In this document: one piece after another, positions 37,501 to 40,225 of the stretch | How positions within the stretch are numbered: position 1 is the first letter of the stretch | How the letters are laid out: each line of letters starts with the position of its first letter | From: Escherichia coli | GTDB taxonomy: Bacteria; Pseudomonadota; Gammaproteobacteria; Enterobacterales; Enterobacteriaceae | Length of the DNA stretch: 64,000 bases | Assembly: GCF_965641715.1 (NCBI RefSeq) | Contig: NZ_OZ282453.1 | Strand: one strand, 5' to 3' | Made by a program: the position numbers

Positions 37501-40225
37501 TTCCTCAACCTGCCAGAAATCGACCGTAGCAAACTGGAACGTATTGATATTCGTACATCGCAGCTGATTACACCGCTGTTTGAATATTCAGGTGCTTGCT
37601 CCGGTTGTGGCGAGACGCCGTATATTAAATTGCTGACTCAGCTCTATGGTGACCGGATGTTGATCGCTAACGCCACCGGCTGTTCTTCAATTTATGGCGG
37701 TAACCTGCCCTCTACACCGTATACTACCGATGCCAACGGTCGTGGTCCGGCCTGGGCGAACTCTCTATTTGAAGATAATGCCGAATTTGGCCTTGGTTTC
37801 CGCCTGACGGTCGATCAACACCGTGTCCGCGTGCTGCGTCTGCTGGATCAATTTGCCGATAAAATCCCGGCGGAATTACTGACGGCGTTGAAATCAGACG
37901 CCGCGCCAGAGGTTCGTCGTGAACAGGTTGCAGCTTTACGCCAGCAACTCAATGATGTTGCCGAAGCACATGAACTGCTGCGTGACGCAGATGCACTGGT
38001 GGAAAAATCAATCTGGCTGATTGGTGGCGACGGCTGGGCTTACGATATCGGCTTTGGCGGTCTGGATCATGTATTGAGTTTGACGGAAAACGTCAACATT
38101 CTGGTGCTGGATACGCAATGCTATTCCAACACCGGTGGTCAGGCGTCGAAAGCGACACCGCTGGGTGCAGTAACTAAATTTGGCGAGCACGGCAAACGTA
38201 AAGCGCGTAAAGATCTTGGCGTCAGTATGATGATGTACGGTCATGTTTATGTGGCGCAGATTTCTCTCGGCGCGCAGCTCAACCAGACGGTGAAAGCGAT
38301 TCAGGAAGCGGAAGCGTATCCGGGGCCATCGCTGATCATCGCTTATAGCCCATGTGAAGAGCATGGTTACGATCTGGCACTCAGCCACGACCAGATGCGC
38401 CAACTCACAGCTACCGGCTTCTGGCCGCTATATCGCTTCGATCCGCGTCGTGCCGATGAAGGCAAACTGCCGCTGGCGCTGGATTCACGCCCGCCGTCAG
38501 AAGCACTGGAAGAAACGTTACTTCACGAGCAACGTTTCCGTCGTCTGAATTCGCAGCAGCCAGAAGTGGCAGAACAGTTATGGAAAGATGCTGCAGCTGA
38601 TTTGCAAAAACGCTATGACTTCCTGGCACAAATGGCCGGAAAAGCGGAAAAAAGCAACACCGATTAAATGCTCTGGATAAGGATTATCCAATTCTAAAAA
38701 AAAGCCCGGACGACTGTTCGGGCTTGTCTTTTTATATGTTGGAAAATCAGTGGCAATGCAATGGCCCAACAGAAAATAAAATCTGTGACAATAAAGGCAT
38801 ATAACCCGCGCAGAATAACTCATAGAAAATTAAAAGTATAATTTTTATTTTGTATGTATTATCTTCGATACATTCACCAGACTTATTATCATTTCAGAGG
38901 AATTATTTGATTAAGGTTTTACTTAAGGCGTAACAAATGATATTTATCGGCTAACTGAACTTCTCCTTTAGGATGTTTTCACTCCCCGAAATGGGGATAA
39001 AAGGCAAATAAAATAACTAAAGGATTTATTCAATGAAAAGCAAAGTACTGGCACTTTTAATTCCTGCCCTGCTCGCCGCAGGTGCTGCACATGCAGCCGA
39101 AGTTTATAATAAAGACGGCAACAAATTAGATCTGTATGGCAAAGTTGATGGCCTGCATTATTTTTCTGATAATTCAGCGAAAGATGGCGACCAGAGCTAT
39201 GCGCGTCTGGGTTTTAAAGGCGAAACCCAAATTAACGATCAACTCACTGGCTACGGTCAATGGGAATACAATATTCAGGCAAACAACACTGAATCTTCAA
39301 AAAACCAGTCATGGACCCGTCTGGCATTTGCCGGACTGAAATTTGCAGATTACGGTTCTTTCGATTACGGACGTAATTATGGCGTAATGTACGACATCGA
39401 AGGCTGGACCGATATGCTGCCTGAATTTGGCGGTGACTCTTATACCAATGCAGACAACTTTATGACTGGTCGTGCCAATGGCGTCGCGACTTATCGTAAT
39501 ACTGATTTCTTCGGTCTGGTAAATGGTCTGAACTTCGCGGTGCAGTATCAAGGTAACAACGAAGGTGCCAGTAATGGTCAGGAAGGCACCAACAACGGAC
39601 GTGATGTTCGCCATGAAAACGGTGACGGCTGGGGTCTTTCCACAACATATGATTTAGGCATGGGCTTTAGCGCTGGTGCGGCATACACCTCTTCTGACCG
39701 CACCAATGACTAGGTTAACCATACTGCGGCGGGTGGTGATAAAGCAGACGCGTGGACTGCTGGGCTAAAATACGATGCTAACAATATTTACCTGGCAACC
39801 ATGTATTCAGAAACGCGTAATATGACCCCGTTTGGCGACAGCGATTATGCTGTTGCAAACAAAACCCAGAACTTTGAAGTCACTGCACAGTACCAGTTTG
39901 ATTTTGGTCTGCGTCCGGCAGTCTCTTTCCTGATGTCTAAAGGCCGTGACCTGCACGCTGCCGGTGGTGCAGACAACCCGGCAGGTGTTGATGATAAAGA
40001 TCTGGTTAAATACGCCGATGTTGGCGCGACTTACTATTTCAATAAAAACATGTCCACTTATGTTGACTATAAAATCAACCTGTTGGATGAAGATGACAGT
40101 TTCTACGCTGCCAACGGCATCTCTACCGATGATATTGTCGCTTTAGGTCTGGTTTATCAGTTCTAAATCCTCCTGCCCGCTGTTATGGCGGGCTTTTTCT
40201 GCTTATTCTTCCTCCTTTGATCTAA

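Follow-up and report, generated by a model that had tools for sequence, protein, structure and literature searches.

A 64-kb window of Escherichia coli DNA, meaning the whole stretch that was analyzed and to whose numbering all coordinates below refer, includes a copy of the porin gene ompN that is interrupted by an in-frame amber codon. We consider it very likely that this is a genuine and recent loss-of-function allele, and that it was created by a single C-to-T transition at position 39711, which converted the CAG codon for Gln227 to TAG. As judged from its sequence, the window's ompN is a pseudogene allele and not a working member of the OmpC/OmpF family of general porins (Porin_1), and it is classed in this way because of the TAG at codon 227. 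No complete, uninterrupted porin coding sequence is present at this ompN locus.

Alleles of this type are ordinary and have already been catalogued, with the 226-aa product available from NCBI under the name “porin OmpN, partial.” Literature searches returned no paper on the window's amber allele or on ompN pseudogenes. On its own the allele matters little, given that it represents an ordinary loss of function in a quiescent porin. The strain would be predicted to be unable to make OmpN, a minor porin that has been linked to MicC and to the β-lactam response.

The interrupted ompN locus

When the internal TAG is read through in translation, the ompN reading frame occupies positions 39033–40166 on the plus strand and consists of 377 codons plus a TAA terminator (40164–40166). 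This frame encodes a signal peptide, a porin domain, and an aromatic C-terminal strand whose last residue is Phe, and it shares 99.8% identity with annotated “porin OmpN” genes over the full 1134 nt. Direct reading of the sequence reveals a Shine-Dalgarno-like AAGGA at 39020–39024 (+), located 8 nt before the ATG. Codons 1–21 (39033–39095, +) are assigned to the signal peptide because the mature OmpK36, OmpC, and PhoE chains in the PDB align from residue 22 (AEVYNK...).

The first open reading frame, 39033–39713 (+), encodes 226 aa and is closed by an in-frame TAG at 39711–39713 (+), which constitutes codon 227, just as reported in a preliminary description of this DNA. That description also stated that the frame continues to the canonical porin C terminus, which is correct, but gave the length of the continuation as 121 codons. 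There are in fact 150 in-frame sense codons after the stop (39714–40163, +), which now go untranslated and which end with ...ALGLVYQF. The number 121 is instead the length in amino acids of an ATG-initiated open reading frame at 39801–40166 (+) that gene callers take for a second “porin” gene. This shorter frame has neither a signal peptide nor an obvious ribosome-binding site (its upstream sequence is tacctggcaacc). Pfam Porin_1 is matched by the ompN fragments on both sides of the TAG, and the region 39033–40166 should be annotated as one ompN pseudogene and not as two small “porin” genes.

The surroundings of the gene are those found in other E. coli, with ompN placed between nifJ/ydbK and uspF, and with the MicC sRNA gene divergent from it. 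Upstream, ydbK/nifJ (35143–38667, +) encodes an intact pyruvate:flavodoxin oxidoreductase of 1174 aa. The MicC gene (38688–38808, −) is full length, matching model positions 1–123 of Rfam RF00121 with a score of 125 bits, where the gathering threshold is 90. Immediately after the ompN frame there is an intrinsic terminator composed of a GC-rich hairpin and a T run (40175–40203, +), and past this terminator lies uspF (40307–40741, +), a separate gene encoding 144 aa. Apart from the stop codon, the locus is thus undamaged, from the Shine-Dalgarno sequence and signal peptide through the downstream codons and terminator to MicC and uspF. Polar effects on the neighboring genes are not expected, given the dedicated terminator of ompN and the divergent orientation of MicC.

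Alignment with intact E. coli alleles, the comparison that had been proposed for evaluating the amber codon, shows CAG at codon 227 in each of them. Relative to the intact allele of O157:H7 strain TR01, the window's ompN differs by just two bases, of which one is a synonymous change at 39245 and the other is the C-to-T change at 39711. At the same site ER1709, a derivative of K-12, reads GAC CAG GTT where the window reads GAC TAG GTT, which bears out the earlier statement that K-12 OmpN carries Gln at this position. The aligned residue in both OmpK37 (PDB 6v78) and OmpK36 is also Gln. The substitution at 39711 is the sole disabling change found against intact orthologs, and the gene is therefore a simple nonsense pseudogene, as the preliminary description had proposed. 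The 150 codons after the stop contain no further differences from TR01, and because this stretch is unchanged the inactivating event appears to be recent.

Several other features of the window are recorded here for completeness. A ydbA-like autotransporter gene (23365–29356, −) is split near 26633 into open reading frames of 909 and 1092 aa by the loss of 2 bp compared with strain A30, where it is one gene of 5,889 nt, and it is likely to be a second pseudogene in the window. Two RNAs were recognized by Rfam models, namely a sok antitoxin RNA of a hok/sok-type locus (5150–5301, +) and the sRNA RydC (5861–5924, +). To the right of uspF and a YkgJ-family gene (41308–41637) a lambdoid prophage begins, whose tail genes (tail fibre, Lom-like, gpJ, and tape measure) extend from about 41700 to 64000. 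The best complete-genome match to the interval 30000–52000, which includes the start of the prophage, is 96.8%.

Authenticity and recurrence of the amber codon

A 61-mer centered on the site has a match in 5,215 complete RefSeq E. coli genomes, and in not one of these is it the TAG version. Likewise, no complete RefSeq E. coli genome has a 100% match to the window's ompN, and the best complete-genome match for the flanking core region is 98.9%. The absence of the allele from this collection is compatible with a sequencing or base-calling artefact, in which the true base is C (CAG) and was miscalled, for example by nanopore sequencing of a Dcm-methylated CCAGG. It is also true that the alteration hits the very C of the Dcm motif that is methylated, and Dcm-methylated contexts are a cause of systematic nanopore consensus errors. 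Despite these points we regard an artefact as very unlikely, due to evidence from other assemblies and from the remainder of the window.

An exact search for the 226-aa product in public assemblies recovered it there. One separate draft assembly (L007, GCA_965259455.1) shares 8,849 bases with the window, all of them identical, TAG included, and its contig breaks at the edge of the window's prophage. This assembly putatively provides an independent confirmation of the TAG, and several further assemblies of public runs (L002–L006) share the codon on other haplotypes. Because the same sequence is present in a second assembly over 8.8 kb, and because four further ompN haplotypes have the same amber codon, we consider a sequencing error unlikely. 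The possibility, raised when the stop was first described, that the true codon is CAG is thus not borne out.

A systematic error linked to methylation is similarly unlikely because the window retains 128 CCWGG sites and because, in a 27.6-kb alignment with strain A30 that has 281 substitutions, the two differ at only three of 142 methylated positions. With no general loss of CCWGG sites in the window relative to A30, we rejected a nanopore methylation artefact as the source of the TAG.

The TAG that we take to be genuine is present on five ompN haplotypes, which are represented by the window together with L007, by L002, by L003 and L006 (the K-12-type haplotype), by L004, and by L005. For each of the haplotypes of L002 through L005, complete genomes contain a CAG twin that is exactly one base away. 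The amber carriers also vary in what lies downstream, where some have no prophage, others have a ZnuA-type ABC transporter cluster, and others have a prophage. This variety of haplotypes and downstream contexts points to repeated independent origin of the amber codon and not to the spread of a single clone. Several of the amber-carrying relatives have ttcA-dbpA at the location where the window has its prophage.

The contigs from two unrelated public runs (L008 and L009) end exactly at the base equivalent to 39711 and carry C there. It is possible that these ends reflect mixed alleles, or another variant adjoining the site, in the samples. Among the places displayed for nonsense mutations at Trp200, Gln173, and Gln279, none is a contig end, unlike those of L008 and L009 at Gln227.

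The Dcm context of codon 227

The substitution falls on the inner C of a Dcm site (39710–39714), which reads CCAGG in intact alleles and CTAGG in the window, and a C-to-T change at the inner C of CCWGG is precisely what is observed. Although ompN has two CCWGG sites, only the one at Gln227 can yield a stop codon. Within the 64-kb window CTAG occurs 11 times, and CTAGG occurs once, at the amber site.

A precedent for mutation in this context comes from lacI, where amber hotspots at CCAGG were explained by deamination of 5-methylcytosine (Coulondre et al. 1978, as presented in PMC12606429). The chemical route for ompN may be the same, with 5-methylcytosine deaminating to thymine and the resulting lesion escaping very-short-patch repair. 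For the window's own lineage we infer this to be the likeliest route, and we would assign it about an even chance of being correct. The dcm and vsr genes are located elsewhere than in the window. A separate matter is whether Gln227 is a natural hotspot for nonsense mutations, as would be revealed by an excess of amber alleles at the Dcm site.

All 11 truncation classes that can be produced by a transition to a nonsense codon and that were looked up occur in public assemblies. These include each of the ten classes other than Gln227 that would yield a product of at least 124 aa, which are present on 15 to 175 contigs apiece, and the count of 62 contigs for Gln227 lies inside this range. Such contig counts are confounded, however, in that the 287-aa class consists of IS10/ISVsa5 insertions and not of nonsense mutations at Gln288, the 285-aa entries are mostly contig ends, and two of the eight places with a 226-aa product are contig ends carrying C. 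Inspection at the DNA level covered five of the ten other truncation classes. Of the six classes examined in this way, Gln227 included, five proved to be substitutions and the sixth was the 287-aa insertion class.

Haplotype backgrounds were therefore compared in place of contig counts, with the proviso that the sample is small and carries no correction for phylogeny. Five haplotypes have a real CAG-to-TAG stop at Gln227. At Trp200, eight haplotypes on 38 contigs carry TGG changed to a stop, six to TAG and two to TGA. These Trp200 alleles (window-equivalent 39630–39632, L048–L057) place that codon above the Dcm-site codon. Real stops are found on three haplotypes at Gln279 (CAG to TAG, 114 contigs), on three at Gln173 (CAA to TAA, 136 contigs), and on one at Gln286 (CAG to TAG, 42 contigs). 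Thus, in this small comparison, made with no phylogenetic correction, no excess of Gln227 over non-Dcm nonsense sites was seen.

Moreover, the amber codon is not restricted to backgrounds that have the Dcm motif. The amber allele of L005 sits on a GAT CAG background (TCAGG), as found in strain M8, and this background has no Dcm site. Gln227 is therefore not a natural hotspot, or at least not visibly so, and the proposal has no support from these data. Dcm deamination is unnecessary for explaining the recurrence of the Gln227 amber.

The lacI amber hotspots likewise involve a T replacing the second C of CCAGG and a CAG codon becoming TAG (Coulondre, Miller, Farabaugh and Gilbert 1978; PMC12606429). 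The two systems differ in that CCAGG sites are over-represented approximately tenfold in lacI, whereas Gln227 of ompN is no more recurrent than nonsense sites lacking a Dcm motif. They also differ because one lineage with the ompN amber (L005) is without the Dcm context altogether.

Predicted consequences and comparison with known systems

Translation of the window's allele would stop after 205 of the 356 mature residues, such that 42% of the mature barrel is lost from the C-terminal end, in keeping with the earlier claim that the barrel is truncated. Judging by the alternation of residues and the family's 16-strand topology, residue 227 probably resides in an external loop that follows about nine strands. 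A single-sequence structure model of OmpN had a mean pLDDT of 30, and this strand placement depends on the pattern and topology. The missing 150 residues would comprise strands 10–16, including the C-terminal aromatic strand that is recognized by BAM. A C-terminal β-signal of this kind is needed for recognition by BAM (PMC7383365). The truncated protein would be unable to close its barrel and would presumably be degraded in the periplasm.

OmpN has been characterized as quiescent or as present at very low copy number (PMC5745476, PMC7383365). Because so little of the protein is made under ordinary conditions, the cost of losing ompN is probably small.

A very improbable explanation is that OmpN remains functional because the amber codon is read through, either by a supE-type glnV/glnX suppressor tRNA or by efficient natural read-through. 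The supE suppressor inserts Gln at UAG, and the site has a UAG where the wild type has Gln. Suppression by supE would therefore, in principle, regenerate the wild-type OmpN protein exactly. The base after TAG is G, and a purine in this position favors suppression of amber codons. The 150 downstream codons are undamaged, as read-through would require, but this is equally expected of a young pseudogene. However, amber suppressors such as supE are laboratory alleles and are costly genome-wide, basal read-through at UAG stays well under 10%, and no tRNA gene is located within the 64-kb window. Recoding of the TAG by pyrrolysine or a similar system was considered and rejected, since to our knowledge no such system exists in E. 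coli. In addition, ompN is barely expressed in any event (PMC5745476).

Loss of function through a simple nonsense mutation, the reading that we prefer for the window, concerns a gene that is otherwise generally maintained. Of 5,426 complete genomes, 5,390 have ompN at a coverage of at least 80%. Among the sampled ompN haplotypes, 13 of 14 variable sites are synonymous, with the amber site itself excluded, and it is this almost entirely synonymous variation that argues for maintenance.

Nonsense mutations in ompN are nevertheless found at many codons and on multiple haplotypes, and other lesions also occur. The element IS10/ISVsa5, which encodes a 402-aa IS4-family transposase, has inserted at one point in ompN on six or more haplotypes, with either orientation represented. 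This point (window-equivalent 39893, near position 861 of ompN, L011–L020) looks like an insertion hotspot for the element, and the resulting 287-aa product is encoded on 175 contigs. Insertions of IS1 in ompN were also seen. Furthermore, a 123-aa OmpN fragment of the O157:H7 EDL933 type and a 298-aa fragment of Shigella flexneri 2a are each present on at least 1000 contigs, and ompN appears to be disabled throughout both of these lineages. In contrast to the EDL933 type, O157:H7 TR01 has an intact ompN.

This repeated disabling by nonsense mutation, IS10/ISVsa5, IS1, and lineage-wide truncation could be taken to indicate that loss of OmpN is favored in some niches, for example as an escape from colicins, phages, or antibodies that make use of the protein. 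Indeed, OmpN is stated to be able, when expressed, to carry colicins E2 and E3 (PMC5745476, where the data are not shown), which is also in favor of an adaptive benefit. Each knock-out allele is rare, however, and that of the window is missing from all of the complete genomes noted above. Intact ompN is nearly universal and varies almost exclusively at synonymous sites. These features fit purifying selection, with knock-outs appearing transiently across a very large sample, and we consider an adaptive knock-out improbable. The repeated knock-outs may be nothing other than transient, mildly deleterious variation, given how many genomes have been sequenced.

A slightly more doubtful proposal is that inactivation of ompN has been selected convergently across E. 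coli and Shigella, with the amber codon of the window as one instance. If true, convergent inactivation would point to an unrecognized cost of OmpN, such as colicin or phage entry or immune recognition. The pattern of knock-outs could therefore matter if a population analysis showed selection for loss.

The closest relatives of the window's gene are the intact ompN alleles of K-12 and other strains (WP_000837921 and WP_000837924), which have the same locus, length, and neighbors and are 99–99.8% identical at the nucleotide level. They differ from it in having CAG and not TAG at codon 227, and the K-12-type protein has Ile330 where the window encodes Val. OmpK37 of Klebsiella pneumoniae (PDB 6v78) is the closest solved structure by sequence, with an end-to-end alignment and an E value of 9e-180, and it has been described as the ortholog of OmpN (PMC5745476). 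The two proteins share an SSDRTNDQ motif that includes the Gln in question, but OmpK37 is from another species and is intact.

Other natural ompN knock-outs, including those with IS10/ISVsa5 or IS1 and those of S. flexneri and the O157:H7 EDL933 type, involve disabling of the same gene, and the IS10/ISVsa5 and nonsense alleles have intact neighbors where these were inspected. Apart from the nonsense alleles, they are insertions or other lesions, some of them fixed in whole lineages, whereas the lesion of the window is a point mutation and its lineage is rare. A further parallel is provided by nmpC of E. coli K-12, the other “quiescent” minor general porin gene, which belongs to a prophage-borne locus and is a pseudogene in some strains. 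It has been reported to be “characterised by a C-terminal deletion” (PMC2808357; see also Prilipov et al. 1998, as cited in PMC5745476). The nmpC pseudogene thus differs from the ompN allele of the window in both its locus and its lesion.
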